Counted from the first letter of the stretch, positions 4,379 to 57,186 are shown. The stretch: 64,000 bases of DNA from a virus (IMGVR_UViG_3300045988_182880:1-64000), one strand, 5' to 3'. Notes: generated by a model from the letters alone, not told the origin. Numbers and translations: made by a program.

Positions 4379-4379
4379 T

Positions 4380-10253: not shown

Positions 10254-11276
10254 ATGAAAAAAGTTGTATCATTAGCACTTTCGGCTTTGCTTCTTCTTTC
10301 TCTGACCGCCTGTAGCAGCTCTAACACTACCAGTACTGCTGCCAGCAGTGCAGCTACATCTGATGCTGCATCCTCCGAGGAAAGCACCAGCGACTCTTCA
10401 ACGAGTACTGCAAGTAGTGCTGCCGATAGTACAACGGCTGAACCTGACATCCAGTTCGATGAGAGTTTCCAGCCACAGACGATTGCCGACAACGATACCT
10501 GTACCATCATCTTGCAGAGCGTTGGCTATGATGATGACTACGGATACTACTGGAAGATTAACTTCCAGAACAAAACGGATGACAAAACTCTTTGCGCTAT
10601 CACAAGCAGCTCGTCCTTGAATGGAATCCCGGCAGATACCAGTTGGTTCCCGGAAATTGGACCAGGAGTGAAAACCACCGAGGTCGTTTCGTGGGATAAA
10701 GCAGGACTGGAAATCTATGGAGTGAAACCGCAAGACATCGATACCGTCAAACTTCACATCGATGTCTATGATGAAGCAGAATGGGATGTGTCGAATCGTG
10801 ATGACCCTGTCGATGATGACTTTGTGATTTATCCGAAAGGTGAAGAGAACGCGACAGAACCAAAACACGAGATTCAGCCCACGGATATTGTGCTGTTCGA
10901 CAATAATGCCTGCAGCATGGTCATTTGCGGATTCTATTCCGACAGCTTCATGGGCTATACGGCGAAAGCCTACTATCAGAACAAGACGGATGACCGTATC
11001 GATATCATTTTGGACAAAGGCTCTATCAATGGCTTTGAATGTACCCCGGAAGGAGCGGCACTACTGGAACCACATTCCAACGCCTATGTTGACATTCGTT
11101 GGCAAGAATATGCTGAAACTTATGCAGAGAATGGCAACGACCCAACATCCATCACAGAAATTGTAATGCCAGTTTTTGTGAGAAAAGACACAGGGAACAA
11201 TACGGTATACATTGATGCCACTTATTCTATTGACCCGCAGGCAAGAACTGCAACGCCGATAGTGAACCCCCAATGA
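10254..11276 (+). CDS. Lipoprotein with two tandem homologous domains (unknown function)
   Basis: AAGGAG RBS is present. The signal peptide MKKVVSLALSALLLLSLTAC carries a lipobox. A Ser/Thr-rich linker follows. Two repeated about 120-aa domains each contain YxxK(A/I)xxQNKTDD. Confidence 0.6.
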   Translation: MKKVVSLALSALLLLSLTACSSSNTTSTAASSAATSDAASSEESTSDSSTSTASSAADSTTAEPDIQFDESFQPQTIADNDTCTIILQSVGYDDDYGYYWKINFQNKTDDKTLCAITSSSSLNGIPADTSWFPEIGPGVKTTEVVSWDKAGLEIYGVKPQDIDTVKLHIDVYDEAEWDVSNRDDPVDDDFVIYPKGEENATEPKHEIQPTDIVLFDNNACSMVICGFYSDSFMGYTAKAYYQNKTDDRIDIILDKGSINGFECTPEGAALLEPHSNAYVDIRWQEYAETYAENGNDPTSITEIVMPVFVRKDTGNNTVYIDATYSIDPQARTATPIVNPQ

Positions 11277-14585: not shown

Positions 14586-15695
14586 TTATGAGGTGGCTGG
14601 CATAGCCAGCATGTCCATTCCTTTCTTTAGAATATTTTCTGCTGCATTTTTATCCCTATCGTGTGATGTATTACACTTCGGGCAGACCCAATGCCGCACG
14701 TTGAGGCTTTTAACCTCTTTGTTTTGGTATCCGCAGCAGGAACAGGTCTGGCTGCTTGGATAAAAGGTTGGTATTTTCACAACCACTCTTCCTGCCCAAC
14801 TAGATTTGTAATCAAGCTGTCGGAAGAACTCTCCCCAAGAAGCATCGGAAATGCTTTTAGCAAGGTTATGATTACGAACCATACCCTTTACATTGAGGTC
14901 TTCTACACAGATGATTTGGTTTTCTTTCACCAGTGTAGATGACAATTTGTGTAGGGTATCTTTTCGTTTGTTAGCTACTTTTTCGTGGCAGCGAACTACT
15001 TTGATGCGCTGCTTTTCCCAGTTGGCAGAGCCTTTCTTTTTGCGTGACAGCTTTTTCTGTTCGCGCTTTAGTTTAGCTTCCGCTTTCTGAAGATACTTAT
15101 GGTTTGGATGTTCGTTTCCATTGCTGTCAACAGCAAAAGATTTGATGCCAACATCCAAGCCGATAGCGGCATTCTTAACAGGAAGCGGTGCTACTTCTAC
15201 TTCGCAAAGAATGCTTACATAGTATTTTCCGCTTGCTGAACGACGGATTGTTGCCTTGCAAATACGACCTTCAATGTTGCGGCTTTTGCGATAGCGCACC
15301 TTTCCAAGTGTAGGAAGTTGAATGTACTTATCGTCAACTTTAATGCTTTTTGCTTTAGTAGTTGTATAACTTTCTTCTCCTCTTTTTCGTTTGAATTGAG
15401 GGAATCCTTTACCGTCTTTGAAAAAGCCTTTATAGGCATTATCTAACTGACGACAGCTATATTTGAGTGCTTGGCTATCCGCTTCAGCAAGCCAAGGAAG
15501 ATAGGTCTTCATCTGAGGAAGTAGATTTTGCGTATCAATATAGCTCATGCTTTCGCCGCGCCGCCTATAGGCTTTTATTCGCCTATCTAATATAGAGTTA
15601 TATATAAAGCGGCAGCAGCCGAGCGTTTTATTGATTTTTACTTCCTGCTCTTCTGTAGGCTCTAGCCGAAATTTATAGCCTTTATGTACTTTCAA
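14586..15695 (-). CDS. tnpB: TnpB (IS200/IS605 OrfB) RNA-guided nuclease
   Basis: The N-terminus [17 protein letters not shown] is the classic TnpB start. RuvC-I is [12 protein letters not shown] CxxC...CPKC zinc finger is present, and RuvC-III is [10 protein letters not shown]. Confidence 0.85.
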
Positions 15696-20692: not shown

Positions 20693-20969
20693 TCCAAAAG
20701 CGCGGTTTTGTCCGCGCAGCTGCTCCAAAAGACAGCCTCCACACGGCGAGCAGCGGGAACATGCTGGTCGGAAACGGCACGGTTGTCAGCTACCAGTGCC
20801 ACTCGATGGATGAGGCGGTCGATATGGTCGCCGCCTTGTACAATGGCAGAAAAACAGAAGCAGCGCAAGCATAACCATCCTGCAAAAATATATGCCGTTC
20901 ATCTTTTTGGGTGGACGGCTTTTTGTTTTGTGAATACAGCGATTCAGTGGCGAAGCGAGCCGATTTTAC

Positions 20970-21022
20970 CAGCAGTTTGATATTCTGCGGCATGATTTCC
21001 AGCAGTTTGATACTCTGTGGGC
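20970..21022 (+). repeat. Two direct 22-bp repeats CAGCAGTTTGATA(T/C)TCTG(C/T)GGC (putative regulator binding sites) immediately upstream of promoter box i
   Basis: The two copies are spaced 30 bp start to start. A third copy lies at 28849-28870. Confidence 0.45.
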
Positions 21023-23600: not shown

Positions 23601-23629
23601 TTGCCCATTTGTGCGAATTGCAGACAATC
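23601..23629 (+). promoter_or_regulatory. Promoter with conserved box (c): TTGCCC-17-ACAATC, spacer atttGTGCGAATTGCAg
   Basis: Motif family. Confidence 0.5.
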
Positions 23630-23711
23630 AGAAATAAAGCGTAAAGCAAAGAAGCTGAGTACCATCTCAAAATTTGCAAGCAAAAAGTTGATTGAGCGAA
23701 ATTGGAATATC

Positions 23712-23984
23712 ATGAAAGACTACGGCAACGGCTATTCCATTGAGGAGCTTGCCGCAAAATACAGGTTGAGCGTCCGTACATGCTATCGAGCGTTAGACGA
23801 CGCGAAACAGAAGGCCAGAATTCAGTTGGCGCAGGTAGAGGATGCCAGAAAAGCTGAAATCCTTGCGGCATACAAGAACAGTGTCCCTCTCAAGGAAATG
23901 ATTGCGAAATTCAACGTGGCAGGTCAACAACCCCGCCTAAACCGGTTCGCCGGTTATAGACGGGGCTTGCGGGGCAACCCGTAA
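23712..23984 (+). CDS. Small protein with two HTH modules (GYSIEELAAKYRLSVRTCYRAL type)
   Basis: The HTH module resembles those of the 50455-52449 poly-HTH genes. The 3' end may be over-extended into the downstream structured RNA. Confidence 0.45.
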   Translation: MKDYGNGYSIEELAAKYRLSVRTCYRALDDAKQKARIQLAQVEDARKAEILAAYKNSVPLKEMIAKFNVAGQQPRLNRFAGYRRGLRGNP

Positions 23985-28772: not shown

Positions 28773-28848
28773 AAAAGGCGGTAAACAAATGCAAGAGGCG
28801 AGAGCCCCGGGTTTGTTGGTTCCAGAACGTTTTTCCACCTGAACTTTA

Positions 28849-28870
28849 ACAGCACTTTGATATTCTGCGG
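28849..28870 (+). repeat. Third copy of operator-like repeat CAGCACTTTGATATTCTGCGGC
   Basis: Matches the pair at 20970-21022. Confidence 0.4.
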
Positions 28871-28910
28871 CCATTGACAAACTGCCAAAGATGTGCTTAG
28901 GGCCAGAACT

Positions 28911-30014: not shown

Positions 30015-32210
30015 ATGATTACAACAAAGAAGATTGACCCACGGCCATATCAGCAGAAAGCTGCTGCGGCGATTCACAGAGAGTGGGATGCCGGAAATAA
30101 GAAAACGCTGGTTGTGATGCCGACCGGAACCGGCAAAACTATTGTGTTTGCAAGCATCGTGAACGACCAGGTGGCAAAGGGCGAACACGTTTTGATTCTT
30201 GCGCACCGGGAAGAGCTTTTACAGCAGGCAAGCGACAAGCTCAAGATGGTGACGGGGCTAGAGACCGCGTTAGAGAAAGCGCAAAGCTCGGCGCTCGATT
30301 CCGATAAGATGGTCGTGGTTGCCAGTGTACAGACTCTCTCTAAGCAGAATCGGTTAATGAAGTATCCGCGTGATTATTTCGGGACTATCATCATTGATGA
30401 AGCGCATCACACGGCAGCCAAAACTTACAAGGGAATTCTCGAGCATTTCATCGATGCCAAAGTGTTGGGCGTGACCGCAACACCCGACCGAAGCGACATG
30501 AAATCCCTATCTGATATCTTTGATAGTCTTGCATTTGAATATAAGCTTCCGGATGCGATTCGGGAAGGGTATCTCTGCAAAATTAACACGAAGACAATTC
30601 CGGTCGAGGTAGACATCAGCAAGGTTCATATCAATGCCGGTGATTTCAGTGCTCAGGACCTCGGCAATGTTCTTGACCTGTATCTGGACACGATTGCGGA
30701 TGCCATTGTGCGAGAATGCCAGAACCGAAAGACTGTCATCTTTACGCCTCTGGTACGAATCAGCAAAAGACTGTGCAATATCCTCAATAAGCGAAACTTC
30801 AAGACCGCAGAAGTCAATGGCGCGTCTGCGGACCGTGAGGACGTTCTGAAAGGGTTTGACAATGGCGAGTACAAGGCGCTGACGAACGCGATGCTCCTGA
30901 CGGAAGGTTGGGATTGCCCGACCGTTGACTGTATCATCTGCTTGCGTCCTACCAAGAGCCGCAGCCTGTATGCGCAGATTGTGGGACGCGGAACACGTCT
31001 GTGTGAAGGGAAAAAGAATCTTCTCGTGCTGGATTTCCTGTGGCTGACAAAGAAACATAGTCTTTGCCATCCTGCTGATATTTTCTGTGAAGACCAGGAA
31101 GTGGCACAAAAGACCACCGATATGCTGGCGGATGCGGCACTCACCGGTTCGAATAGCCAGGAGAATTTCGGGAGTCCTGAATTGGGGCTGATTGAGGCAA
31201 TCGAGGAAGCACAGACTGAGCTGGACGAGGAAAAGCGGAAAGCACTGTGTGAACTCGAAAAGCAGGATACGATTCAGCGCAAGCTCCAGGCACAGCGTCA
31301 AAAGCCGAGAGGATTGGTTGACCCGCTGCAGTATATCTTCAGCATCGAAGCGCCGGAACTCAACGACTATCAGCCGATGTTCGAGAGTGAAAAGCAGGAG
31401 CCGTCCGATGAAATCATCGATAACATCTCGTCTTTCGGCGTGAAAGGCAGTGCCATCAAATCTCAGGGCCTTGCCGAGGCAATTTTCAAACGACTCATTG
31501 CTCGCAGAGCCAGCGGAATGGCTACCCCGAAACAGATTCGGTGTCTTGAAAGTTTCGGGTTCGTCCATGTTGGGCGCTGGACATTGCGCTATGCAAGCAG
31601 CTTTTTGGACATCATCAGTTCTCATGACTGGAAACTTCCGAATGGGTTTGACGCATCCACGCTAGACCCGGAAAAGAATACGGCAGAAGACCTCGCCAAG
31701 CTGTATCCAGACTACAAGGAGGATGAGACGAAGAAAGCACCGCGTGGGGATGCTTTCATCTGCTGCTACTACGATGCAAGCTATAATTTAGCACGCAAGA
31801 AAGTCTGCAACAGTGAAAAAGAAATGCTGAATCTGTATTATTCGCTTTTCAACAATTGCGAAGCAAAGTGCTTCTATTTCACGAAAGAGGCGGATGCCTG
31901 GATGGCAGAAAAACAGAATCTGATTGCCAGAAAGACCGGAACACCGATTCCTGCCGCACAGCCGACTCAGGCAACACCCGCAGTACCGCCTCCCTTTGTC
32001 CCGGCAGCTCCCGCCAAGAGCCACGAATATTATTGCTGCCTTGCCCGATGGGATGGGTCCTACATTGGCTATGAGATTTACAAGAGTGAGCAGGCAGCTC
32101 AGAATGCCCGAAAGCAGATTGCCCGGCGCGGTGAGACGGCAGTGTATGCCACAGTAGAGGAAGCTGAAGCGTGGGTTGACAAGCAGAAGGCCGCAAGAAC
32201 CAGGAGGTAA
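30015..32210 (+). CDS. SF2 DEAD/DEAH-box helicase (type III restriction Res-like) with C-terminal tandem RNase H1-type hybrid-binding-like repeats
   Basis: Helicase motifs are I MPTGTGKT, II IIIDEAHH, III GVTATPDR and VI QIVGRGTR. The C-terminus has two repeats ending FTKEADAWM and VEEAEAWV, resembling the Cauli_VI / RNase H1 N-terminal domain. Confidence 0.7.
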   Translation: MITTKKIDPRPYQQKAAAAIHREWDAGNKKTLVVMPTGTGKTIVFASIVNDQVAKGEHVLILAHREELLQQASDKLKMVTGLETALEKAQSSALDSDKMVVVASVQTLSKQNRLMKYPRDYFGTIIIDEAHHTAAKTYKGILEHFIDAKVLGVTATPDRSDMKSLSDIFDSLAFEYKLPDAIREGYLCKINTKTIPVEVDISKVHINAGDFSAQDLGNVLDLYLDTIADAIVRECQNRKTVIFTPLVRISKRLCNILNKRNFKTAEVNGASADREDVLKGFDNGEYKALTNAMLLTEGWDCPTVDCIICLRPTKSRSLYAQIVGRGTRLCEGKKNLLVLDFLWLTKKHSLCHPADIFCEDQEVAQKTTDMLADAALTGSNSQENFGSPELGLIEAIEEAQTELDEEKRKALCELEKQDTIQRKLQAQRQKPRGLVDPLQYIFSIEAPELNDYQPMFESEKQEPSDEIIDNISSFGVKGSAIKSQGLAEAIFKRLIARRASGMATPKQIRCLESFGFVHVGRWTLRYASSFLDIISSHDWKLPNGFDASTLDPEKNTAEDLAKLYPDYKEDETKKAPRGDAFICCYYDASYNLARKKVCNSEKEMLNLYYSLFNNCEAKCFYFTKEADAWMAEKQNLIARKTGTPIPAAQPTQATPAVPPPFVPAAPAKSHEYYCCLARWDGSYIGYEIYKSEQAAQNARKQIARRGETAVYATVEEAEAWVDKQKAARTRR

Positions 32211-32215
32211 TCATA

Positions 32216-32769
32216 TGCGTACAGACAAAACGGCAAGCCACATTTGCTACGAGCTTGACCACGATGTGCAGGAATATGCGAAACGGCTTTTAGCCAAAAA
32301 AATTCTGCACGCGGCACAGCAGGACAATGCCGTTCCGTTCCCTAATGAAACGGCAAAGAGAATTGCCGAGACAGCGGTGTTTCTGACCGAACGCCTCGCA
32401 CTTTTGTATGAGCTGAATTATGGATTCCGAGGCGTCCAGTTCAGCACTTTCGGAGAACAACCTGCTGTATACACTACCATGGTCCAGCACAATGCCCCGC
32501 TGTATGATGAGCCGATGCTTGGACGGGCCTACAACCTTGCCAACTACCTTACTGCTGATAATGCGGATATCAAAGAATCTGCTTTGATGAAGCACAAAGT
32601 TTTGGCAGCAATTTATAGTGCCGCTGCACACATGAAAGGGCAGACTCCGGAGCGGGGAAAAATCTCGGTTCAGAGCCAGCTGTTTGTGTCTACGGCAGTT
32701 GAGTTGTTTGATGGTCTTTTGAGTGCAGCAGTAGAGAAAAAGAACAGCGGCAATAAAACCGCCGCATGA
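32216..32769 (+). CDS. Hypothetical protein (184 aa) between helicase and NADAR genes
   Basis: AGGAGG RBS. The 5-nt intergenic gap suggests translational coupling. Confidence 0.45.
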
Positions 32770-32790
32770 GATAGAGAATAGGAGATTCGC

Positions 32791-33282
32791 ATGATTCGAT
32801 TCAGAAAAGATACCCCTCGCTATTGGTTTATGAGCAACTATTACCCTTGCGAATTTGTGATGAATGGGATTCGTTACAAGAACGCCGAGGCAGCATTCCA
32901 GAGTCACAAGGTCCCGCTGGAAGAGCGCAGACAGTTTGCGGACATGCCACCGGCTTCTGCCAAGCGTTTTGGCCGCAATGTGGCTATCCCCGCAAACTGG
33001 GACAAAACTCGGGACGATGTAATGCGCCGCGTGGTGATGGCTAAATTCGAACAGAATGAAGACCTCAAGCAGCGTCTCCTCGAAACGGGTACGCAGCCTA
33101 TTGAGGAAGATACCACCAGCTGGCATGACAACTATTGGGGCAACTGCCACTGTCCGAAATGCCGGAACATCCCAGGCCAGAATCGGCTTGGAACTATTCT
33201 GATGGAAACGAGGGATAAATTGAAAAAGCAAGCTGGCAGCCTACACGATACCGGGAATGCGTTCGGAAGGAACGACCTATGA
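32791..33282 (+). CDS. NADAR (YbiA-like, DUF1768) ADP-ribosyl hydrolase family protein
   Basis: It aligns along its full length to E. coli YbiA. The N-terminal WFMSNYYPCEFVMNGIRYKNAEAAFQSHK block matches the NADAR motif and a conserved AKFEQN is present. The C-terminal GQNRLGTILMETRDKL matches YbiA GKNRLGYLLMELREQL. Confidence 0.85.
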   Translation: MIRFRKDTPRYWFMSNYYPCEFVMNGIRYKNAEAAFQSHKVPLEERRQFADMPPASAKRFGRNVAIPANWDKTRDDVMRRVVMAKFEQNEDLKQRLLETGTQPIEEDTTSWHDNYWGNCHCPKCRNIPGQNRLGTILMETRDKLKKQAGSLHDTGNAFGRNDL

Positions 33283-33808
33283 TGTTCCGACTTACTCGGC
33301 ACTGAAAGGTGCAATGGATTCTATCTACAAACATGTCGGTATGGAAGCAATTCCTTCGGCAGTGTACATTCACTCTCCCATTAAAAAGACCCGTATCCTG
33401 CTGCGAAACATTGAGAATATCGGAGGAATACGGTCCCGCGAATGCTTAACGGATGTTTGCTACACGGTCGTTGTACGAATCGTGAGAATGGACAACATGG
33501 CCTTGGAGAGTGACCTCGCAGTGCAGTACAGAAATTTCTTAGAATATGTTTCCGATAGCTGTGGGATGGGATATCCGTATCTTGGCGTGATGGAAACACC
33601 CATGTATTTTCATCCTGTGGCGGAAACGGAAATTCTTCCAACACTGCCCATTACCGCTGACTTGTGCAATATGCCTTTGACACCGGATTATACGAACAAA
33701 TTTGAACCGGATTTGGTTTGTAGGCATCTTCACATTGAGAATGGTATCATCGATTTTACGAAAGGGGAGTATTTTCGCTGCTATGGATATTCTGAATGCG
33801 CTGGTTAA
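33257..33808 (+). CDS. cas5: Cas5 (Cas5d/Cas5c, type I-C family), N-terminally short; overlaps NADAR gene by 26 nt
   Basis: TYDVPTYSALKGAMDSIY matches Cas5d SYSVPTYQALKGIAESIY, and DVCYTVVVRI matches DVHYQVKAHF. An in-frame stop at 33221-33223 fixes the start. Confidence 0.7.
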   Translation: MRSEGTTYDVPTYSALKGAMDSIYKHVGMEAIPSAVYIHSPIKKTRILLRNIENIGGIRSRECLTDVCYTVVVRIVRMDNMALESDLAVQYRNFLEYVSDSCGMGYPYLGVMETPMYFHPVAETEILPTLPITADLCNMPLTPDYTNKFEPDLVCRHLHIENGIIDFTKGEYFRCYGYSECAG

Positions 33809-35729
33809 GCACTATGATGCGATGGCAGCAGCTGGAAATGCAACGCCTTTCGGCTGGACACACAAGTTTGCTCAGTATGCCGTCGAACTAAACGATGACG
33901 GGGAAATCGATAGGATTTTCGCTCTCGGTGATTTATCCGATAAAAAGAACAAAGGCGAGGAATTCGAGATGCCAACACGCAGGCCACGGTCTGGCAAGCT
34001 GCCGATTCCGTATGTGTTCTGTGATGATGCGGAACATCTTCTCGGCAAAGTCGGTGAAGCGAGCAATCTTGTTCGATACACTATGATGCGCGACGCAGTC
34101 TTTATGCTGCGTGACCTGTTGGGACATTCTAAAGCCTTAGATGTCGTCTACAAGTTCTACGAAACGTGGGACCCAGAAAAGGCGCTTGACAATAAATGTG
34201 TCAGCGACGTAATGGAGGCGAAAGGCCAGGAAAAGAAAACCTTTATCCTGTTCTACAATGGCGTTCCAGTTTTTGATGATGAGACATTTCGCAAAAGCTA
34301 TGCGGCGATTGTCAATAAATATGGGGAAATGCCGATTGATACACTCAAGGGCGGTGAAATTGCTCTGTTGCCGGAACCTATCAGGATTCGAAGCATGATA
34401 AGCGGCAATATCGGGTTTAAGGCTCGCTTGTTTCGAGCCATCACGGCATGGGGAAACAAAAAGAATGGCCCGGTCACAAACACTCTTTTGTCCAACAACA
34501 AAGCAAACACCGAGTATTTCGGACGTCAGCAGGGCAACGCCATCCCCATCACAATGCAAGATGAACATAAGATTTACGAAGCGGCTACAGATTTGCTCAG
34601 CTCCAAGCATCGGTTTTCGGTCCCGGTCACTTCACAGTCGCTTTATTCAAAGAACCAAATCATCTGGTCGGATGATATGCCGACAAAGCTAGAAGACGCG
34701 GTCATTGACCTGTGCTGCTGCCGTAGTGATAAAGCCAAAATTATCTCTCAGGCAAATGAATCGGGTTCTGAGACCACTATCAGAATCCTTGAAAAAGCAA
34801 AACTCTATCAGGGACGAATCACGGTTCTTTCGGACACTGAAAAAAACTTAGTCGTCAACGTTTGGAATCTTGATATGAATGATAAGGGATGTTCTGCATC
34901 CAGCTTTACACAGATGACGCTTGGCGAGCTGCTTGGAAACTTTGCCAAGCATTACACTGACATGGAAATTGACCGAAGCCAGACTTGCCGAGATGCGGAT
35001 GGAACCAGCCGAGATTTTGCAAGAGCCATCAACATCTACAACTCACTTTTCGCCAAGAACAGTGATGGAAGCACGAATTCTTTCAACAACGCTCTTTGGA
35101 AACAACTGAGTATCAGCATTTATTCCGGAACAAAGTATCCGGAGCAAGTCCTTTCCCTGGCACTGCTTCGGTCCTGCCGTTTGCTTCAGCAAAATAAGAA
35201 AGGCAAAGAAAATCGCATCACGGCGTCTTTGGCCGGTATCACAAAAGCGTTCTTGATTCGCAATTACGGGGAGAATATGACCATGGGACTCGACCAGAAC
35301 AACACCAGTCCTGCTTATATCACGGGACGAATCTTCGCGCATATGGAAAGTGCGCAGAGAAAGATTGACCCCAACAACCAAACCACTTACGCTAAACGGT
35401 TCTTTGAGCGAGTTATGATGAACCCGGCAAAAACCATGCCGGAGCTTCACAAGAGTTTCCTTCTTTTGAAGAACAAGGCTAAAGCGAATGGCATGAGAGG
35501 TCTTTATAATTCCTGCGACAAGAAAATTATGGCTCTTATCGATATGCTGGATGGCAACTATCCCGACCATCTATCCGAAAAGCAAAAAGGTGAATATCTC
35601 GTCGGATACTATCAGCAGCGAAGCGCAAACATCAAGGATGCCGAGGAGAAGAAAAACCGGAAAGCCGCCAAAATTGAAACTAATAATACGGATACTGCGA
35701 CAACCGTTGCAACACAAAAGGAGAAGTAA
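33783..35729 (+). CDS. cas8c: Cas8c (Csd1) large subunit, type I-C
   Basis: AAAGGGGAG RBS before the ATG at 33783. MDILNALVKHYDAM...PFGW...ELNDDGEI...PIPYVFCDDAEHLLG matches the Cas8c N-terminal consensus ILQALYDYYER...P.G...iD.dG...vP...lwD...YvLG. Confidence 0.8.
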   Translation: MDILNALVKHYDAMAAAGNATPFGWTHKFAQYAVELNDDGEIDRIFALGDLSDKKNKGEEFEMPTRRPRSGKLPIPYVFCDDAEHLLGKVGEASNLVRYTMMRDAVFMLRDLLGHSKALDVVYKFYETWDPEKALDNKCVSDVMEAKGQEKKTFILFYNGVPVFDDETFRKSYAAIVNKYGEMPIDTLKGGEIALLPEPIRIRSMISGNIGFKARLFRAITAWGNKKNGPVTNTLLSNNKANTEYFGRQQGNAIPITMQDEHKIYEAATDLLSSKHRFSVPVTSQSLYSKNQIIWSDDMPTKLEDAVIDLCCCRSDKAKIISQANESGSETTIRILEKAKLYQGRITVLSDTEKNLVVNVWNLDMNDKGCSASSFTQMTLGELLGNFAKHYTDMEIDRSQTCRDADGTSRDFARAINIYNSLFAKNSDGSTNSFNNALWKQLSISIYSGTKYPEQVLSLALLRSCRLLQQNKKGKENRITASLAGITKAFLIRNYGENMTMGLDQNNTSPAYITGRIFAHMESAQRKIDPNNQTTYAKRFFERVMMNPAKTMPELHKSFLLLKNKAKANGMRGLYNSCDKKIMALIDMLDGNYPDHLSEKQKGEYLVGYYQQRSANIKDAEEKKNRKAAKIETNNTDTATTVATQKEK

Positions 35730-35731
35730 CA

Positions 35732-36694
35732 ATGTCTGAACTCGTTAAGAATCCTATCACCATTGTTCTAGCGTTTGATGCGCAGAACTGTAATCCCAAT
35801 GGGGACCCCGACAACGACAACAACCCGCGTCAGTTTGAGGATGGAATCGGGTACATGTCGTCCGAAAGCATCAAATATAAGATTCGCAGCTACATCCGTG
35901 ACAAGGTCTTGTTTGACGGTCTGGAAAAGAACAGCTATGCACTATATTGCAGCCCCGATACTTTTTCCATTGAGCGCAGCGTTAAAGAGTGCCTGGAGCC
36001 TATCATCGGCAAAAAAACCAAAGGCATCCCCGATGACCAACAGCTGGAGGCTTATAAAGAGCTGTGCCGGTACTACTATGATACTCGCATGTTTGGGCTT
36101 GTGAATACGAGTTATTCCAACTGCAGCCTTCTAAGCCGCATCAAGGGTGCCTGCCAGGTATCTATGCCGATGTCCTATGACCCTATCGAAATCATCCCGA
36201 TGACGATTACTCGCTGCTGCGTTGCTTCCGATGCTGAACGCAAAGGCGAAGATAAAGGCGCCAAGAAGGGCGTCAGTATCGACGAAAGCGACGATGGAGC
36301 CGAAAAGAAGACGAAAGACCGCATGATAGGCCGTCGAAGCATTATCAGATATGGGCTGTATCACATGAGCATTCAAATCAACAGTGCAATGGCACAGCGT
36401 AACGGTGTTACGATGGATGACGTTAATTTGTTGATTGATGCGCTGCAGCATATGTTCGAGGAAGATATGAGCTCCAGCAGAGCCCTAACGCTGCGTAAGT
36501 TGATTGTCGTTGAGCACACCAAACCGATGGGAAATGCTTATCGGGACACCATTGAGCGGGCACTGGCGGCTCGACTGAAGCAACCTAATGATGCACCTAC
36601 ATCTTATGAGGATTACGAGGTGACTTATCACCGCGAAATGCTGCCTGATGAGGTCAAGGTGACTGAGTATAATTATAACAGTCAAAGCGTTTGA
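35732..36694 (+). CDS. cas7: Cas7 (Csd2) backbone subunit, type I-C
   Basis: IVLAFDAQNCNPNGDPDNDNNPRQFEDGIGYMSSESIKYKIRSYI carries the hallmark NPNGDPD...PR...G...S...KRKIR motif of Csd2/DevR. Confidence 0.85.
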   Translation: MSELVKNPITIVLAFDAQNCNPNGDPDNDNNPRQFEDGIGYMSSESIKYKIRSYIRDKVLFDGLEKNSYALYCSPDTFSIERSVKECLEPIIGKKTKGIPDDQQLEAYKELCRYYYDTRMFGLVNTSYSNCSLLSRIKGACQVSMPMSYDPIEIIPMTITRCCVASDAERKGEDKGAKKGVSIDESDDGAEKKTKDRMIGRRSIIRYGLYHMSIQINSAMAQRNGVTMDDVNLLIDALQHMFEEDMSSSRALTLRKLIVVEHTKPMGNAYRDTIERALAARLKQPNDAPTSYEDYEVTYHREMLPDEVKVTEYNYNSQSV

Positions 36695-40134: not shown

Positions 40135-40500
40135 ATGGTGAATTATCATTTTGTGTTTTGCCCGCGCTATCGAAGAAAAATATTCTTAATAGATGGTGTA
40201 GAAGCGCGATTCAAAGAACTTGTACACCAAATTTGCGAGCAAAACGATTTTGATATATTAGCTATGGAATGCTACATTGACCATTGCCACTTGTTTTTGA
40301 ATGTTCCTCCAACAGTAAGTCCCTCTGATGTCATGCGTATCATTAAAACGAATACATCAAGGGTGCTGCTCAAGGAATTTTCTGAAGCAATTAAAACAAA
40401 AACCATTTGGACACGCAGTTATTTTGTCAGTACCGCCGGTGATGTATCTGCTGCTATGATACGCCGCTATATAGAAACCCAAAAGACTCGAGGTGTGTAA
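40135..40500 (+). CDS. tnpA: IS200/IS605 TnpA (Y1 HUH transposase)
   Basis: MVNYHFVFCPRYRRKIF, HUH motif DHCHLFL, and catalytic Tyr region RSYFVSTAG. An extended -10 TGGTATAAT lies upstream. Confidence 0.8.
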   Translation: MVNYHFVFCPRYRRKIFLIDGVEARFKELVHQICEQNDFDILAMECYIDHCHLFLNVPPTVSPSDVMRIIKTNTSRVLLKEFSEAIKTKTIWTRSYFVSTAGDVSAAMIRRYIETQKTRGV

Positions 40501-42043
40501 TTTGCCATACGGTCAAAAATCAAAAATGGATACCTTTATCCTGACGTTGCCGCTTATTACGAATTCGCACGATGAGGCGGAACTGTATTCCAGCTTTGAA
40601 AAATATTGCAAAGCATATAATTGGCTCGTTCAAAAAACCACGGAGATGTGGCATCAGGTGCGCAAAACTCGCAAATATCGCGATTTGGTTTCTGCTATTG
40701 CTGATACGGCTCCAAAAAGCAAAGAACGAAAAGCATTGTATAAGGAACGTACAAAGCTGCTCGAATCGTACGGTTTCACAAGCGTATCGTTCGAGAAGAA
40801 GCTTAAAGCGTATGCGAAATACTACCATCTGCATTCAGCCATCACGCAAAAGATTGCCGCTCGTGTCTGGGATTCGTGGTACAAGTTCTTCTATAAGAAC
40901 GGAAAATCCGTCCATTATAAAAAGCTAGACGATTTCGTTAGTTTTGCGGGCAAAACCAACAATACAGGCATTCAGTTCCTCGACAATAATGGTTTGTATA
41001 TTAAATTCCGTGGACGCTGCATTCCGGTTAAGCTGCGCAAAGGCAATACCGCATGGTATCAGCAGGAAGCGCTCAAACGGAAAGTTAAGTTCTGCACCAT
41101 CAAGCGCGAAATGATTCGGGGACAATGGCGCTACTTTGTACAGCTCGCCTTGGAAGGCAATCCCCCCATCAAATGCGACAGTAACGGCGTTATGAAGCAT
41201 CCTGTTAAGCAAGGCCGCATTGGTATAGATATCGGAACACAAACCATCGCGTTTAGCGGTAATGATGTTTGCGACCTCCGTGTGCTTGCACCGTCTGCTA
41301 TAGCAGAAGTCCGCAATGGTCTCACTAAGGAAATCGCTCGCGTTATGCGGCAAATGGACCGTTCGCGCCGGGCGATGAATCCGCAGTATTATAACGAAAA
41401 CGGAACCATCAAACGGCTAAAGCGCAAGAATGGACATAAGCAAATTCGTCATTGGAACTATAGCAAAAACTATTATCGGCTGCTGCATAAATTGCAGGAT
41501 TTGAACCGTAAGCTTGCTGCCGTACGCAAGACGGAACACTATATTCTTGCCAACGAGTTGCTGACATACGGCAACGAATTCGTGGTTGAAGATATGAACT
41601 ACAAAGCCTTGCAGAAGCGCAGTAAGAAAACGAAAATCAACCCCAAAACTGGTAGAGCGTATACCAAAAAGCGATTCGGTAAATCTATCGGTCGCTGTGC
41701 CCCGGCTTTGTTTATCGCCATTTTAGGACAAAAAGTAAAGTGCAGTGGCGGCAACATTATCAAGGTCAGCACTTTTGAAACGAAAGCCTCGCAGTTTGAC
41801 CACACCGATGACAGCTATACCAAAAAGAAATTGTCCCAGCGTTTTGCTAAACTCTCCAACGGAACCGTTGTCCAGCGGGATATGTATTCCGCATTTCTTT
41901 TAACGCATTTAGATGAAAGCCTTCAAGGCTACGATAAAGAAGCCATCGATAAAGATTTTCAACAGTTTATGAAACTGCACAACGAGGCAAAAGAACGCTT
42001 GCAAAACAGCCACGAGTGGCTGCCTTCTAGCGTAGGATTCTGA
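40493..42043 (+). CDS. tnpB: TnpB-like RNA-guided nuclease (IS605 OrfB), overlapping tnpA end
   Basis: RuvC-I is GIDIGTQTIAF, RuvC-II is VVEDMNYK and RuvC-III is QRDMYSAFLL. Confidence 0.8.
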   Translation: MCNLPYGQKSKMDTFILTLPLITNSHDEAELYSSFEKYCKAYNWLVQKTTEMWHQVRKTRKYRDLVSAIADTAPKSKERKALYKERTKLLESYGFTSVSFEKKLKAYAKYYHLHSAITQKIAARVWDSWYKFFYKNGKSVHYKKLDDFVSFAGKTNNTGIQFLDNNGLYIKFRGRCIPVKLRKGNTAWYQQEALKRKVKFCTIKREMIRGQWRYFVQLALEGNPPIKCDSNGVMKHPVKQGRIGIDIGTQTIAFSGNDVCDLRVLAPSAIAEVRNGLTKEIARVMRQMDRSRRAMNPQYYNENGTIKRLKRKNGHKQIRHWNYSKNYYRLLHKLQDLNRKLAAVRKTEHYILANELLTYGNEFVVEDMNYKALQKRSKKTKINPKTGRAYTKKRFGKSIGRCAPALFIAILGQKVKCSGGNIIKVSTFETKASQFDHTDDSYTKKKLSQRFAKLSNGTVVQRDMYSAFLLTHLDESLQGYDKEAIDKDFQQFMKLHNEAKERLQNSHEWLPSSVGF

Positions 42044-43852: not shown

Positions 43853-45002
43853 ATGAAAATCAAAAACAATCTATTTCGGAGCACAGCGGCAATCATCGCT
43901 GCGCTCTTTGCACTCAGCTTCACCGGCTGCGGTCAGAGTCCGATAATATCGGAAAGTCCATCCAGTATTGGGGTCGTCTCAGAAAGCACTGCAAGCAGTG
44001 AGCAGACGGCTGGCGATTCGGTGGACGGCAGCTTTACGATTCACTTTTTAGACGTAGGACAGGCGGATTCCGCTCTTGTTACCTGCGACGGCCACTCAAT
44101 GCTGATTGATGGCGGCAATGTGGATGATTCTAACCTCTTATTCTCTGTTATGCAACGAGAAACCGATGGGCACCTGGATTATGTCGTTGGGACTCACGCG
44201 CACGAAGACCACATCGGCGGCTTGTGAAGCCGTTACTGCGGACATGACTCTATGCCCTGTGACAGAATACGACAGCAAAGCATTTCGGAACTTTGCAAGC
44301 CACGCGGAACAGAAAAGCGGCGGCATTACGATACCGGATGTGGGGGATACCTATACTTTGGGAGAAGCGGAATTCACGATAGTTGGTGTTAATTCTGTTT
44401 CCGATGATACGAACAATGCATCGATTGTTCTGCGCATCGTTTATGGGGATACTTCGTTCCTCTTTACTGGTGATGCTGAACAGGAAGCCGAAAATGTGAT
44501 ACTTGCATCGGGACAAGACATTCAGTCAACGGTTCTGAAAGTGGGTCATCACGGCTCAAGCACATCTACCTCAGAGGCTTTTCTGGACGCAGTGAATCCG
44601 ACCTATGCCGTAATATCTTGTGGAGCAGGGAACAGCTATGGCCACCCACATCAGGAAACACTCGACAAGCTGCAAAACAAGGGTGTTGTGGTTTATCGTA
44701 CAGACCTGCTGGGTGATATTTACTGCACCTCGGATGGCAAAGAGGTAAGTTTCACTTCCGGCGAATATCATGATGAGAATCGGATTGAAGCGGGTTCTGC
44801 TGCAGAGTCCAATGATGAACAAAACAGCAAACCTCTTGTAATAGACGAAACATACGTTCTGAATACAAGTACCATGAAGTTTCACAAACCCGATTGCTCT
44901 GTAGTCGAATCGATGAGCCAGAAGAACCGAATCAACTATATGGGCTCACGTGACGAGCTCATCCAGGAAGGGTATTCGGCGTGCGGGATTTGTAAGCCTT
45001 AA
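43853..45002 (+). pseudogene. ComEC/Rec2-type metallo-beta-lactamase-fold lipoprotein, apparent -1 frameshift after HAHEDHIGGL (about 44225)
   Basis: The signal peptide carries a lipobox (ALSFTGC). Motifs HFLDVGQADS...LIDGG and HAHEDHIGG are present. Then a stop occurs, and the continuation VLKVGHHGSSTS...NSYGHP is in another frame. Confidence 0.6.
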
Positions 45003-46641: not shown

Positions 46642-46800
46642 ATGAGCAAATTATACATTAACGGCAAAGTTGTGCAGAACGCTATTGGCTGGCGCTTGAC
46701 CGCAGTTCCCGAACTGGGTTGGGCTATTTTGTTCAGTGATGGCACACAGAGCTTTATTCCGAAAACAGAAATCAAATCCATTTACAAAGGAGATGAATAA
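46642..46800 (+). CDS. Small protein (52 aa) immediately upstream of radical-SAM gene
   Basis: MSKLYINGKVVQNAIGWRLTAVPELGWAILFSDGTQSFIPKTEIKSIYKGDE. The stop overlaps the RBS region of the next gene. Confidence 0.3.
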   Translation: MSKLYINGKVVQNAIGWRLTAVPELGWAILFSDGTQSFIPKTEIKSIYKGDE

Positions 46801-46801
46801 C

Positions 46802-47542
46802 ATGCACATTTGCAGTGTGAGCAATGTGGTCATAGAAATCACGCGCCGGTGCAATATGTGCTGTGCGCACTGCATACGCGGAGATGCCGAAAATGTCGAT
46901 ATTCAGGAAAAATACATCGACGCTTTTCTCGATAGCTTCGATAAAGGCGCTTGTATCAGCTCTATCGTCTTTAGTGGCGGAGAAATCTCTCTGAATATCC
47001 CGGCAATTCGGTATATTCTGAAAGCCGTCAAAGAGCGAAACATCTCGGTTGGCAGCTTCTATATGGTCACCAATGGCAAGGCTGTCGATAAGATGGCGGA
47101 CCTTGCTCTCGCGAGTCTTGAGTGGTGGAATTACTGCGACAACAAAGACGACGATATGTGCGGCCTTTGTGTCAGCAGCGACAACTTCCACGAGAAAATC
47201 CCGCATGAAAGCGAAGGCTTCTTTAGTGGCTTGAAATACAGCCACGACGATAAGGTGACGGACTTTCGCTTTCATTCCCTTATCAACGAAGGCCGCGCCA
47301 AAACCATCAATTCGAGTCTCTACAAAAAATGCGAACCATGTGTGAAAAAGCTTGAATACAGAATCAACGAAGACAGCGGTATCGATTTCTGGTGCAGCGA
47401 AATGTACCTGAACGCTGTTGGCGACGTTGTTTCCGGTTGTGACTGGTCCTATGAGTCACAGAAGAAGTACCGTCTTGGCAATGTGATGGACAAGAACTGG
47501 CTGGATAATATTCCCGACAGCGAATGGTGCATTGCGAACTAA
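46802..47542 (+). CDS. Radical SAM enzyme with C-terminal Cys-rich (SPASM/twitch-like) region
   Basis: The CxxxCxxC cluster is RRCNMCCAHC. A GGE motif FSGGEISL is present. The C-terminal cysteines sit in CDNKDDDMCGLC...CEPC...C...C. Confidence 0.65.
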   Translation: MHICSVSNVVIEITRRCNMCCAHCIRGDAENVDIQEKYIDAFLDSFDKGACISSIVFSGGEISLNIPAIRYILKAVKERNISVGSFYMVTNGKAVDKMADLALASLEWWNYCDNKDDDMCGLCVSSDNFHEKIPHESEGFFSGLKYSHDDKVTDFRFHSLINEGRAKTINSSLYKKCEPCVKKLEYRINEDSGIDFWCSEMYLNAVGDVVSGCDWSYESQKKYRLGNVMDKNWLDNIPDSEWCIAN

Positions 47543-50165: not shown

Positions 50166-50315
50166 TAATCCTAGATATTTGTATCATTCATACAAGGCCG
50201 GAAAACTACTGGATTGATTTTCAAAAGCAATGGCAATCAAGACCACTGCCCCGAAAAGGGTAGTGGTCTTATTTTTTTGCACAATATTTACCATAAATTA
50301 CCAGAAAGAAAAACG

Positions 50316-50343
50316 TTGTGCATCTGTGCGAATTGCATATAAT
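50316..50343 (+). promoter_or_regulatory. Promoter with conserved box (h): TTGTGC-16-TATAAT, spacer atCTGTGCGAATTGCa
   Basis: Motif family. It precedes the poly-HTH genes. Confidence 0.5.
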
Positions 50344-50454
50344 ACAAAATATAGAACGAAAGGCATCAAAAAATATCGTTGGTCGGGCAAAATCGGACCA
50401 AAAGGCTAGAGCGGGCTCAGTTTTGAACCTGCTCTTTCTTTTTACGGAGGCTTT

Positions 50455-50982
50455 ATGTCAAACAAAGAAGAACGCATTAACCGCAATAAAAGCATCATCG
50501 AAGATTACAAAAATGGAAAGTCGATTTTAGAAATCTCGTGGAAATATAATCTCTCAGAAACAATGTGCTACAAGATTCTAAAAGGCACGCAGGAGCCGCC
50601 TCGTTATTTTGAAAAAAAGGGGAAGAGACTTACCGCTCGAAATGAGCAAATTGTTAAACAGTATAAAGGCGGTATGACGGCCAGAGAATTGGGCAAGATG
50701 TACGGCATTTCCATGCAGCGTATTTATGCAATCTTGCATTCGAGCGGAGAGTACGAAAGCCAAAAATACAATCATATTGAAACGGCTCTCAAAAAAGAGA
50801 AAAAGATGCGGAACCAAACTTTTCTTGATGCTTACAAGAAAAATCCTCAAAAATCGATTATCGAGTTGAGCAGGGAGGTAAATATCAGCCCTTCACTAGG
50901 TTACCTTATCCTTCATCAAAATGGGATTTACCAGTATAACGTAAAAACCAGAGCCAAGGAGAATAGCGAAAATGCCGATTAA
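50455..50982 (+). CDS. Protein made of three tandem 45-aa HTH modules
   Basis: Three repeats of the type IIEDYKNGKSILEISWKYNLSETMCYKIL. Confidence 0.5.
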   Translation: MSNKEERINRNKSIIEDYKNGKSILEISWKYNLSETMCYKILKGTQEPPRYFEKKGKRLTARNEQIVKQYKGGMTARELGKMYGISMQRIYAILHSSGEYESQKYNHIETALKKEKKMRNQTFLDAYKKNPQKSIIELSREVNISPSLGYLILHQNGIYQYNVKTRAKENSENAD

Positions 50983-51484
50983 CAAGATTACCCACGTGTG
51001 TCTAACTCATGACAAAGTCAAAGCACGAAATGAAAAGATGCTGGAGGATGCCAAGGACGGTATGTCCCAGGAACAGCTGGCTGAAAAGTATCAAATCTGT
51101 GTTTCTACTGTCCGATATAGTCTGAAGGACTTTTACGAAGAACAGGCCCGACAGAAGAAGGCAAAGAAGGAAGCCTGGCAAACCCAGATGATTCATGAAT
51201 ATGAGATGGGCGCAAAATCTCCGGAGCTTCAGGAAAAATACGGCATCAGTGGAACGCTCTTTTATCGGATTCTTCATGCGCACGGAAAGAATGGCCGACA
51301 AATCCACAGCCAAAACCGTATCGAGACTGGCAAGAAAAGAAATGCCGAGATGGTCAGGAAATACAAAAACGGCGTTTCTGTCAAAGAGCTTGCGCAAGAA
51401 TACGGGCTCAAAAAGGGAAGCGTATATCGCGCCATGAAGCGGTATAGTCCAGGCCCCAAAAAAAGCAAAAAGTCGGCAAAGTGA
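50972..51484 (+). CDS. Protein made of three tandem HTH modules
   Basis: Three repeats of the type LEDAKDGMSQEQLAEKYQICVSTVRYSL. Confidence 0.5.
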   Translation: MPINKITHVCLTHDKVKARNEKMLEDAKDGMSQEQLAEKYQICVSTVRYSLKDFYEEQARQKKAKKEAWQTQMIHEYEMGAKSPELQEKYGISGTLFYRILHAHGKNGRQIHSQNRIETGKKRNAEMVRKYKNGVSVKELAQEYGLKKGSVYRAMKRYSPGPKKSKKSAK

Positions 51485-52449
51485 GAGGTGAGTACGTGGT
51501 TGCATCAAAGAAAGATGTTGCGAAGCAGCAGGTAAAAGAAGACCGCGAAAAGGTCCGGGAAATGTATCTTTCTGGCAAAACTGTCAAGGAAATCGCCAAG
51601 GAAACGTATTTTTCAAGCTCTTATTGCTATGCCATGGTGAGAGACCTAGCGAAAGAAAAGAATCTTGCAAAGAAAGCAAAAAGAGCACCTCTCAACGAAG
51701 CTATGATTCAAGATGCGAAAGCCGGGATGACGGTTGCTGAAATCGCAAAGAAGCATGGCGTGACCTATCAGCAGTGCTACTATACTGTTTCTGAATACGC
51801 TCAAGCTACGATTAAGAAGAACAAGAAAAAGCAGTCTGCTGCCACGAAAGTTCGCAATGCGGCTATGTTGGAAGATGCGAAAGCCGGAATGACTGATAAG
51901 GAAATCGCCAAAAAATACTTTTTGTCTCGAAGTAGTGTTCGTACCGTCCTTGCAGGGCATTTACATACAAATTCCAAAAAGTTGGATGAAAGGCGCAAGG
52001 CGATTCTTGCGGATTATGAGGCAGGAACGTCCTCAAAAGACATCTGTGAGAAATACGGTATTTCAAAATCCACTCTTTACAAGGACATGCGCCAAGTTGG
52101 AAAAACCTGTCAGGAATACTATCACAAGGCGCTGAAAGACAAGACCAATCAAAGGAATTCCGATATTCGAAGCAAAATCGAAAGAGGGGTCTCGGTCAGC
52201 ACTATTGCCAAGGAATACGGAATCTCTAAAACGGCGATTTATGAAACCTTTCATCAGGAAAATGTCAGAGCTGGAATTTTGCAGAAACGCGGCCGTCCGC
52301 GAAAAAACACGGAACGTAATGCACTGATTGCTAAACGCCACAGGGAAGGCGAGGCAATACAGGCACTTGCTACCGAATATAATCTCTCTATTTCGACGGT
52401 AAACACTATTTGCAGCAGAAACAAAAATCAGAATATTGCATCATATTAA
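51481..52449 (+). CDS. Protein made of six tandem HTH modules
   Basis: Six repeats of the type (E/Q)DAKAGMT(D/V)KEIAKKY...S(T/S)V(R/Y). Confidence 0.5.
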   Translation: MRGEYVVASKKDVAKQQVKEDREKVREMYLSGKTVKEIAKETYFSSSYCYAMVRDLAKEKNLAKKAKRAPLNEAMIQDAKAGMTVAEIAKKHGVTYQQCYYTVSEYAQATIKKNKKKQSAATKVRNAAMLEDAKAGMTDKEIAKKYFLSRSSVRTVLAGHLHTNSKKLDERRKAILADYEAGTSSKDICEKYGISKSTLYKDMRQVGKTCQEYYHKALKDKTNQRNSDIRSKIERGVSVSTIAKEYGISKTAIYETFHQENVRAGILQKRGRPRKNTERNALIAKRHREGEAIQALATEYNLSISTVNTICSRNKNQNIASY

Positions 52450-52496
52450 CAGGCTGCCATTTGGCGGCCTGTTTCTTTTTTTGGAGGAAAATAACA

Positions 52497-53411
52497 ATGA
52501 CCGATGACGTACGAAATTTGATTCGATTTGTGGTGGATGGCGATATTCGAAATGCACAGACTCAGTGCCGAATCATGCTTGAAAAAAATGTCCCTGAAAA
52601 AGATGCCCGGTTTAAGGAGGCTGAACTCAAAAAGCTGAATCTTCTGAAACCGGAACTCATTCAGCTGCCTGCCAACCTGGAAAGTCTCTTGATTGCGGAA
52701 GATGCCACAAACTTCCCGGAAAGCCGGTTCCTGCTCCTTGAAGAGGAAGAAACTGTCATCAACAAGCTCTTGGCTACCAGAAAAGCAGCTCTTGCCATCA
52801 AGGAGCTTGGCATCCACTATACCTGCTCTTTGCTCTTGACGGGCCTTCCTGGCGTCGGCAAGACCGAATTGGCCCGTTACATTGCACACAAGGCAAATTT
52901 GCCGTTTGTTTTCCTGAAATTCTCTGGCTTGGTCGATTCCGCTCTTGGTCGTACACAGCAGAATATCGGCAGGGTATTCGACTATGCAAAACGCACGCCT
53001 TGCGTTCTCTGTGTTGACGAAATTGATGCCATCGGAATGTGCCGTGGCGGCCGCGATGACGTCGCTGAAATGAGCCGTGTCACCATTGCTTTGATGCAGG
53101 AATTGGACCGGCTCCCAAACGATGTCATTCTCATCGGCACCACTAACCGCGTCGATAATTTGGATGAAGCGCTCATTCGCCGATTTACTTTCAAACACCG
53201 GGTTAAGCCTTTAAGCGACGATGACATGAAAGAGCTGTGCAAGAAGTTCCTTGCTTCGGCAGACTACCCCTTCACGGAATCTGAACTTGACGAGCTCTGT
53301 CATTTGCTCCGTGAGCAGCGGACTGCCAGCGCCGTTGTCAATGCTTGTACAGAACATATCGTTGCACATATCGTATCGCAGATGCCTGAAAATACGGCGG
53401 ATGCCCTGTAA
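52497..53411 (+). CDS. Classical AAA+ ATPase
   Basis: Walker A is GLPGVGKT and Walker B is VLCVDEIDA. The SRH segment IGTTNRVDNLDEALIRRF is present. Confidence 0.75.
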   Translation: MTDDVRNLIRFVVDGDIRNAQTQCRIMLEKNVPEKDARFKEAELKKLNLLKPELIQLPANLESLLIAEDATNFPESRFLLLEEEETVINKLLATRKAALAIKELGIHYTCSLLLTGLPGVGKTELARYIAHKANLPFVFLKFSGLVDSALGRTQQNIGRVFDYAKRTPCVLCVDEIDAIGMCRGGRDDVAEMSRVTIALMQELDRLPNDVILIGTTNRVDNLDEALIRRFTFKHRVKPLSDDDMKELCKKFLASADYPFTESELDELCHLLREQRTASAVVNACTEHIVAHIVSQMPENTADAL

Positions 53412-57110: not shown

Positions 57111-57186
57111 GGAGGGATAGCTTAGCTGGATAAAGCACCTGCCGCAAAGCAGGGTATCGATGGTTCGAGGCCATCTCCCTTCTCCA
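57111..57186 (+). tRNA. tRNA-like with non-canonical anticodon arm (5-bp stem + 6-nt loop CGCAAA, or 4-bp + 8-nt loop)
   Basis: Acceptor, D and T arms and CCA are canonical. The anticodon arm is 16 nt rather than 17. Confidence 0.35.

Follow-up and report, generated by a model that had tools for sequence, protein, structure and literature searches.

What kind of protein is built almost entirely of helix-turn-helix (HTH) units, and why would a phage carry three such genes side by side? This question is raised by positions 50455-52449 of a 64,000-nucleotide stretch of viral DNA (IMGVR_UViG_3300045988_182880, positions 1-64000, hereafter the window), in which three adjacent, co-directional open reading frames on the + strand, here called A, B and C, had been described as encoding 3, 3 and 6 tandem HTH units. 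All 12 units were recovered by profile in the present analysis, and the genes were examined for their transcription signals, unit composition, selection, variation among relatives and likeness to known families.

Gene organization, transcription signals and phage context

Gene A (50455-50982, + strand) carries the ribosome-binding site GGAGG and encodes a protein of 175 amino acids, pI 9.65, with 3 HTH units, the cores of which occupy nt 50479-50586, 50635-50742 and 50806-50919. Gene B (50972-51484, + strand; 170 amino acids, pI 9.84, 3 HTH units with cores at nt 51023-51130, 51173-51280 and 51335-51442) starts inside the end of A, giving an overlap of 11 nt. Gene C (51496-52449, + strand) encodes 317 amino acids from GTG 51496, pI 9.82, with 6 HTH units; the first three cores lie at nt 51541-51648, 51688-51795 and 51850-51957, and the last three at nt 51988-52095, 52144-52251 and 52306-52413 (all + strand). 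The start of C was placed at GTG 51496 because about 100 close homologues are likewise 317 amino acids long with first residues MAASKK, corresponding to this codon, and because GAGGTG lies directly 5′ of it. The alternative start, GTG 51481, would give a protein of 322 amino acids, for which an exact protein look-up returned no match. With C starting at GTG 51496, B and C are separated by a gap of 11 nt, so that of the 4-11 nt overlaps given in the first-pass annotation the 11 nt between A and B stand, whereas the 4 nt between B and C would apply only if the less likely start at 51481 were used. The net charges of A, B and C are +13, +18 and +30, respectively.

The upstream transcription unit is closed by a strong intrinsic terminator (50239-50279, + strand; 13-bp stem followed by a T-run), and A-B-C ends in a second strong one (52448-52483, + strand; 11-bp stem, T-run), which overlaps the C stop codon. 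Between the first terminator and gene A lies a sigma-A-like promoter (50316-50345, + strand) composed of TTGTGC (-35), the conserved spacer element TGTGCGAATTGCA and TATAAT (-10). It contains a copy of the box GTGCGAA-N6-ANAAT (50326-50343, with TTGTGC at -35) at a distance of 110 nt from gene A. The three genes thus form one operon, bracketed by terminators and placed behind a box promoter. That the trio is driven by a multi-copy box, as first proposed, was borne out by this copy and by a total of 13 intergenic + strand copies in the window (TTGY at -35); a search of the window with the box pattern gave 15 matches, compared to 4.3 expected by chance. In 1.39 Mb of related loci, 128 boxes were found on the gene strand and 0 on the opposite strand, and in relatives a box copy was always present about 130 nt upstream of gene A. 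An Rfam search in and around the operon gave nothing credible.

The window also carries 17 tRNA genes, helicases, an HNH endonuclease, TnpB-like genes and a type I-C cas3-cas8c-cas7 set at 30-36.7 kb, 14 kb upstream of the operon; a search of the 64 kb for CRISPR arrays found none. The neighbours of the operon encode an AAA ATPase, a radical SAM protein and a metallo-beta-lactamase-fold protein. In MT835520 and MT836731, two distant phages that share the AAA ATPase, no HTH array was found beside the ATPase gene. Related sequences, most of them from human gut samples, were viral contigs in IMG/VR, the longest 222 kb, and metagenome contigs, the longest 281 kb; one 90% cluster of protein C alone contains 2,572 member sequences. 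When the locus and 20 kb of the window were compared with 50,697 phage genomes for DNA similarity, no match was obtained, and tblastn of C against the same genomes likewise gave none. From its gut relatives and the lack of a GenBank phage DNA match, the source is a prevalent, uncultured, large gut phage. In genome collections, scans for C and P0105 turned up no host or isolate that carries either.

Composition, predicted structure and variation of the arrays

In a leave-one-protein-out test, the units of two proteins were made into an HMM that was searched against the third. It detected 3 domains in A (83 bits for the whole protein), 3 in B (89 bits) and 6 in C (129 bits); the top score among 500 shuffles per protein was 6-10 bits. 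The consensus of the hand-delimited units, xxRNxxIxxxYxxGxSxxEIAxxYGISxSTVYxxL, agrees with the unit pattern noted earlier, and the unit period in A, B and C is 46-57 residues. The Pfam models matched were HTH_23, HTH_28, HTH_7 and Mor, the last in its C-terminal part, and as many as 5 separate stretches of C were matched. The earlier description of the proteins as pure HTH concatenations held, in that the Pfam scan of A, B and C found no non-HTH domain; units cover about 75-80% of each protein and the remainder is basic linker.

Pairwise identity among units is 9-42%, which indicates that the duplications are old. A and B align collinearly across three units (33% identity, E 1e-11), and the two halves of C are likewise collinear with A and B, at 24-33%. 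Since off-register alignments among A, B and the halves of C score about as well, these sequence comparisons are only suggestive of a locus that may consist of a 3-unit module in four copies.

An AlphaFold2 model of C, made from an alignment with 19 orthologues, contained 18 helices (6 x 3), with pLDDT values of 75-86 in the units and below 60 in the linkers; a single unit modelled alone reached 87.7. With a pTM of 0.28, the C model predicts no fixed placement of the units relative to one another. A Foldseek search of the PDB with the whole model of C gave nothing significant, as expected of a beads-on-a-string model. The linkers are 10-21 residues long, rich in lysine and arginine and predicted to be disordered. 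The linker between units C5 and C6 contains the AT-hook-like sequence KRGRPRKN (52285-52308, + strand; C residues 264-271), which has the R-G-R-P core and basic flanks of an AT-hook; of these residues only R265 varies among the 19 aligned orthologues, K264 and G266-N271 being invariant.

Estimates of dN/dS were 0.26 for A (47 distinct alleles) and 0.20 for C (54 distinct alleles), showing purifying selection on the array genes. The lowest value, 0.07, was obtained for the recognition helix of A, compared with 0.28-0.40 for linkers; because orthologues are at least about 85% identical outside deletions, these values are built on shallow divergence. Recognition helices are distinct among units and conserved among orthologues.

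The 3+3+6 layout in three ORFs with unchanged gene boundaries was present in 57 of the 65 related IMG/VR loci. Among the variants, C alleles of 263-264 amino acids (3+3+5) carry a precise, in-register deletion of 54 amino acids that fuses C2 and C3 and maps to a pair of 63-nt direct DNA repeats in these units (51690-51752 and 51852-51914, + strand; 76% identical, 162 nt apart). In two samples, a single gene of 321 amino acids, composed of A1, A2, an A3/C3 chimera, C4, C5 and C6, replaces the trio between unchanged flanking genes. Units are thus lost through in-frame deletions that join two units. Other contigs have split ORFs, an insertion of TnpB, or the first units of C fused to the ATPase that follows. 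The array is therefore under maintaining selection, yet plastic and at least partly dispensable, as the 6- and 11-unit variants and the split genes indicate; partial dispensability is a poor fit with the role of a master regulator.

Comparison with known families and with a wider class

The unit is a generic fold of the sigma-4, LuxR, resolvase and Mor C-terminal type. A, B and C were compared with the Mor, Cbp1, small terminase, sigma and transposase families, none of which was matched in full. In keeping with the view first taken of the locus, no multi-repeat family with an assigned function was matched, the best named matches all being partial or below cut-off.

Mor/C proteins consist of an N-terminal dimerisation domain plus one C-terminal HTH in about 100-140 amino acids, and activate middle or late promoters through a dyad just upstream of the -35 element. 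Against the Mor profile (PF08765), A, B and C scored 34.2, 31.1 and 40.7 bits, above the gathering score of 24.9, but only profile positions ~57-101 of 107 were matched, repeatedly, the C-terminal HTH of the model lying at 57-95, and the full-length Mor architecture is absent. Like Mor/C of phage Mu (PF08765; PDB 1RR7, 9L0X), the arrays are phage-encoded and share the motif RNxxI...G.S..EIA..YG.S; unlike them, they have no N-terminal dimerisation half and carry tandem covalent repeats in place of a dimer. When the unit profile was searched against solved structures, Mu Mor was not retrieved at E <=1, and the closest natural solved relative was Cbp2, with two linked HTHs (E 2e-10).

The CRISPR repeat-binding proteins Cbp1 and Cbp2 (PDB 2LVS; NF040595) are, like A, B and C, small basic proteins of linked homeodomain-like HTH repeats. 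The three phage proteins consist solely of linked HTH repeats with basic linkers, as do Cbp1/Cbp2, and the alignment of A with Cbp1 is collinear over all three repeats; scores against the Cbp1/Cbp2 model (NF040595) were, however, 24.2, 23.7 and 52.1 bits, below its cut-off of 140. Cbp1/Cbp2 are archaeal and have 2-3 units, whereas the present arrays belong to a bacterial-type phage, with 3+3+6 units in three co-transcribed genes. In Cbp1, the three HTHs align 5′ to 3′ on the 24-bp CRISPR repeat and the protein forms chromatin-like structures (PMC10883916); the two domains of Cbp2 are held together by a basic linker (PMC3597662).

Sigma-70 family membership failed on both score and architecture. 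A and B scored 19.4 and 17.5 bits against Sigma70_r4 (cut-off 24.1), and the 36.2 bits of C are a sum only, no single stretch passing the cut-off; sigma region 2 is absent from A, B and C (TIGR02937 below cut-off). LuxR, resolvase and DeoR HTHs match the units as well as sigma region 4 does. Membership in the transposase HTH arrays (IS630, IS21, IS3, IS481) was also rejected, with scores of 17-44 bits against NCBIfam cut-offs of 100-224 and no catalytic domain in A, B or C. PADLOC gave generic HTH matches only for the three proteins. Members of the CD3324 family are 82-amino-acid proteins with a single unit. Against the model of this family (NF040785; cut-off 65), A and B scored 49 and 58 bits, and C scored 85.5 bits as the sum of 4 stretches at profile positions ~39-82; these scores reflect a shared unit type, not membership. 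A search of the literature on CD3324 found nothing relevant. Pipsqueak (4 Psq repeats), Myb R1R2R3 and paired/Tc3 proteins differ in being eukaryotic, with 2-4 repeats and with HTHs usually embedded in larger proteins, and no orthology to them is implied. A-B-C belongs among the linked-HTH DNA binders, a kind already known; it stands out for the number of its units, for its organization in three genes, for the recombination visible at the level of units and for the size of the unnamed class to which it belongs.

This class was delineated by searching the unit profile against 1.84 billion protein cluster representatives, which gave 10,505 matches at E <=1e-3 and 1,174 at E <=1e-10. Of the best 146 matches, most have 4-9 units, the median period is close to 50 amino acids, and many are pure arrays; among the strong matches, many carry 5-13 units. 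Examples include P0103 (632 amino acids, 12 units) and P0104 (1,557 amino acids, 21 matched stretches), and the 10 representatives that were looked up were all unnamed. Neither P0103 nor P0115 was found when IMG/VR was scanned for them. Poly-HTH proteins, held to be unusual in the first-pass annotation, are so in the literature, where a full-text search on prokaryotic or phage poly-HTH arrays found no paper, but not in sequence space, given the 1,174 representatives at E <=1e-10.

Cultured examples are gp454 of Caulobacter phage J4 (312 kb) and its relatives, and, on the Clostridium baratii plasmid pCBJ, four tandem paralogues situated 1.4 kb downstream of the gene for the replication initiator; these are annotated just as 'hypothetical' or 'helix-turn-helix domain-containing'. 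P0103, P0104, J4 gp454 and the pCBJ cluster share with A-B-C the unit type and the period of ~50 amino acids, and are often pure arrays. Three of the four pCBJ paralogues score as 3 HTH units followed by a C-terminal domain of ~190 amino acids without a Pfam match, an extra domain that A, B and C lack. Many of the metagenomic arrays have near-identical units, whereas those of A, B and C are old and divergent. No unit-by-unit collinearity was found between arrays of the wider class and A-B-C, which indicates that the arrays expanded independently; twelve-unit orthology with P0103 was rejected on the same ground.

Candidate functions

We read A-B-C as a tri-cistronic operon of multivalent, sequence-reading DNA-binding proteins that would act head-to-tail on long sites in a regulatory role, an interpretation that we regard as evenly poised between right and wrong. 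DNA binding, its geometry and the regulatory role are inferred as follows, and of the roles considered a regulatory one is the most likely. Each unit has a tri-helical HTH core of ~36 residues preceded by a basic arm. By analogy with Cbp1, the modules may be arranged head-to-tail along one DNA molecule, with the third helix of each in the major groove and the linkers, including the AT-hook, and the basic arms running along the minor groove; at Cbp1 spacing, A and B would span about 25-30 bp each and C about 50-60 bp. Covalent linkage would then replace the dimerisation of single-HTH regulators such as Mor. Because the recognition helices differ by unit and are conserved by orthologue, the target is expected to be long and asymmetric, or to comprise several different sites, instead of consisting of identical repeats, and purely non-specific coating is disfavoured. 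The proteins may serve accessory, non-essential transcriptional regulation or host take-over (phage gene timing, accessory-gene control), and they would be expressed in a promoter class common to the phage's replication and cas genes. A search of the window and locus L001 for tandem DNA repeats that could be targets gave nothing suitable. The 27-nt repeats at 20965, 20995 and 28845, upstream of two promoters, were also considered as array targets and were rejected because they contain the dyad CAGCAG-N9-CTGCGG, typical of a dimeric regulator.

The sole multi-copy element found was the promoter box, and its reader may be none other than the host's sigma factor. Were the arrays instead to bind this box (~30-35 bp, TTGc-N6-GTGCGAA-N6-AnAAT), they could switch a whole promoter class, including their own operon. 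The excess of the 13 intergenic + strand boxes over about 4 chance pattern matches and the confinement of all 128 boxes in related loci to the gene strand are consistent with such a reader, as is the resemblance of the unit to the DNA-binding part of Mor-type activators, and the three conserved blocks of the box, about one helical turn apart, could suit a 3-HTH protein, although this match of box geometry to unit number is conjecture. The -35 and -10 blocks, however, resemble ordinary sigma-A elements, the box is still present in variants with half of the units deleted or with split genes, and the relatives are all near-identical. The 11-unit, 6-unit and disrupted alleles argue against an essential function and thereby weaken the idea, which we consider unlikely. 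It is quite unlikely that the proteins are abundant, basic DNA binders of low specificity, serving to compact or shield the phage's DNA or to silence that of the host. The high values of pI and net charge, a flexible and multivalent design, the AT-hook linker and the tolerated changes in unit number would all suit an architectural or coating protein, and Cbp1 offers a precedent in its chromatin-like structures (PMC10883916). Against this stand the twelve distinct recognition helices, that of A being its most constrained part (dN/dS 0.07), a constraint to be expected if bases are contacted specifically, but not if the backbone is bound. HTH folds, moreover, are typically sequence-specific.

Binding to replication or partition sites, or an origin as homing-endonuclease targeting remnants whose catalytic partner was lost or never present, is very unlikely in our judgement. 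Tri-HTH modules elsewhere act as long-site DNA-targeting domains, the 3-HTH paralogues of pCBJ lie near a replication initiator gene, and A and B weakly match homing endonucleases in PADLOC (E 3e-4 and 2e-5) and endonuclease PHROGs. Yet A, B and C have no catalytic domain, a scan of the immediate neighbour ORFs gave no nuclease-domain match, the HNH gene being 25 kb away, no iterons were found in the window or L001, and purifying selection together with the conserved architecture speaks against decay. A further reading takes the arrays for mimics of sigma region 4 that act on RNA polymerase (beta-flap) or on anti-sigma or co-factor partners instead of DNA and so redirect host transcription. 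A and B fall below the Sigma70_r4 cut-off and C passes it only by the summing of its stretches, the HTHs of LuxR, resolvase and DeoR match equally, and the basic arms and AT-hook indicate a nucleic acid partner; this reading is highly improbable. The terminase-small-subunit-like recognition array for packaging proposed in the first-pass annotation is left with almost no probability: A, B and C have no oligomerisation core, packaging genes, that for the large terminase included, are absent from the neighbourhood of the operon, which lies instead among the AAA ATPase, radical SAM and metallo-beta-lactamase-fold genes, and half of the units are missing in otherwise intact variant contigs.

If the preferred reading, in which linked HTHs read long DNA sites module by module, is true, the unit would be a natural, compact scaffold (about 50 amino acids per module) for long DNA sites, and the arrays a previously unnoticed regulatory device in large phages and other mobile elements. 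In a broader form, tandem HTH arrays would be the counterpart, widespread in prokaryotes and phages yet unrecognised, of zinc-finger or TALE arrays, with a sub-site of ~8-10 bp per unit, 3-21 units reading 25-200 bp and specificity rewired by unit gain, loss and shuffling, this phage using three of them as a combinatorial targeting set. We offer this extension as speculation and consider it unlikely; the in-register unit changes seen here are the 3+3+5 and chimeric 6-unit alleles. The 1,174 cluster representatives at E <=1e-10 define a testable protein class, and the gut phage is a handy entry point to it because its natural 12-, 11- and 6-unit alleles can be compared.

Promoter box and associated element

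The promoter box TTGY-N6-GTGCGAA-N6-ANAAT lies on the + strand of the window at 209, 8396, 16067, 16234, 18121, 21035, 23611, 26505, 28922, 29656, 37001, 45031 and 50326, and no copies were found on the opposite strand of the window. In the related loci, 128 copies lie on the gene strand and 0 on the opposite strand. The motif is a phage-specific promoter box in which an element of the spacer, GTGCGAA, is conserved. Two variant box promoters (-10 CATACAAT) have copies of a 27-nt element, TTTACCAGCAGTTTGATATTCTGCGGC, approximately 15–50 bp upstream. This element occurs in three copies (20965–21021 and 28845–28871), two of which are spaced by 30 bp, and contains the dyad CAGCAG-N9-CTGCGG. The element resembles a site at which a dimeric regulator would act, either as an operator or for activation.

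A box promoter also lies directly upstream of a 127-aa ORF (23601–23984) containing HTH units of the array type, one clear and one partial (RNWNIMKDYGNGYSIEELAAKYRLSVRTCYRAL); this ORF is a candidate further small regulator.

Genes flanking the array

Directly downstream of the array, an AAA ATPase gene (52497–53411) was matched by PADLOC to IetA, a component of the anti-phage defence system IetAS (E 4.8e-56), and also to PHROG 3757; no protease partner for this IetA-like ATPase was evident. In some metagenomic proteins, the first 2–3 units of gene C (51496–52449), the last gene of the array, are fused to the downstream AAA ATPase. Two genes upstream of the array (44106–45002 and 46736–47542) encode a protein with a metallo-beta-lactamase fold and a radical SAM protein. 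The metallo-beta-lactamase-fold homologue in the relatives (386 aa; 2496–3656 of contig L001) gave a faint match to Anti-Pycsar Apyc1, and the region may be an anti-defence neighbourhood.

Array relatives in other replicons

In the 192-kb NCBI contig L005 (GCA_009741515.1 VOFJ01003468.1), the same 12 array units are distributed over six short ORFs (8695–10750) containing 1, 2, 2, 1, 1 and 5 units. Many of the adjoining genes are likewise short, and the splitting looks like the result of indel errors in the assembly, not biology.

Among cultured replicons, the C. baratii plasmid pCBJ (L083) carries four tandem paralogues (4841–8971), with the replication initiator 1.4 kb upstream of them. Three of these paralogues score as 3 HTH units followed by a ~190-aa domain of unknown type. 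Caulobacter phage J4 (L084) encodes gp454 (3923–4681; 252 aa), a pure HTH-array protein annotated as hypothetical, in which the profile built from the window's units detects 2 units and Pfam HTH models match at further positions along the protein.

CRISPR-Cas, TnpB-like and tRNA genes

The phage encodes a type I-C-like CRISPR-Cas effector gene set (30015–36694) with a box promoter upstream at 29656. The set consists of genes for a Cas3-like helicase (30015–32210), Cas8c/Csd1 (33702–35729; Pfam 3.5e-69) and Cas7 (35732–36694; Pfam 1.4e-53). Neither cas1, cas2 or cas4 nor a CRISPR array was found within the 64-kb window. Three TnpB/IS605-like ORFs (8463–9923; 14586–15695, on the - strand; 40493–42043) match PHROG 506, the best with E 2e-134, and a C-terminal fragment of TnpB is fused into one metagenomic allele of gene C (P0075). 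Seventeen tRNA genes are clustered between 55684 and 61834, all on the + strand; one ARAGORN call in this region, at 57111–57186, has an odd, two-base anticodon and the amino acid undetermined.
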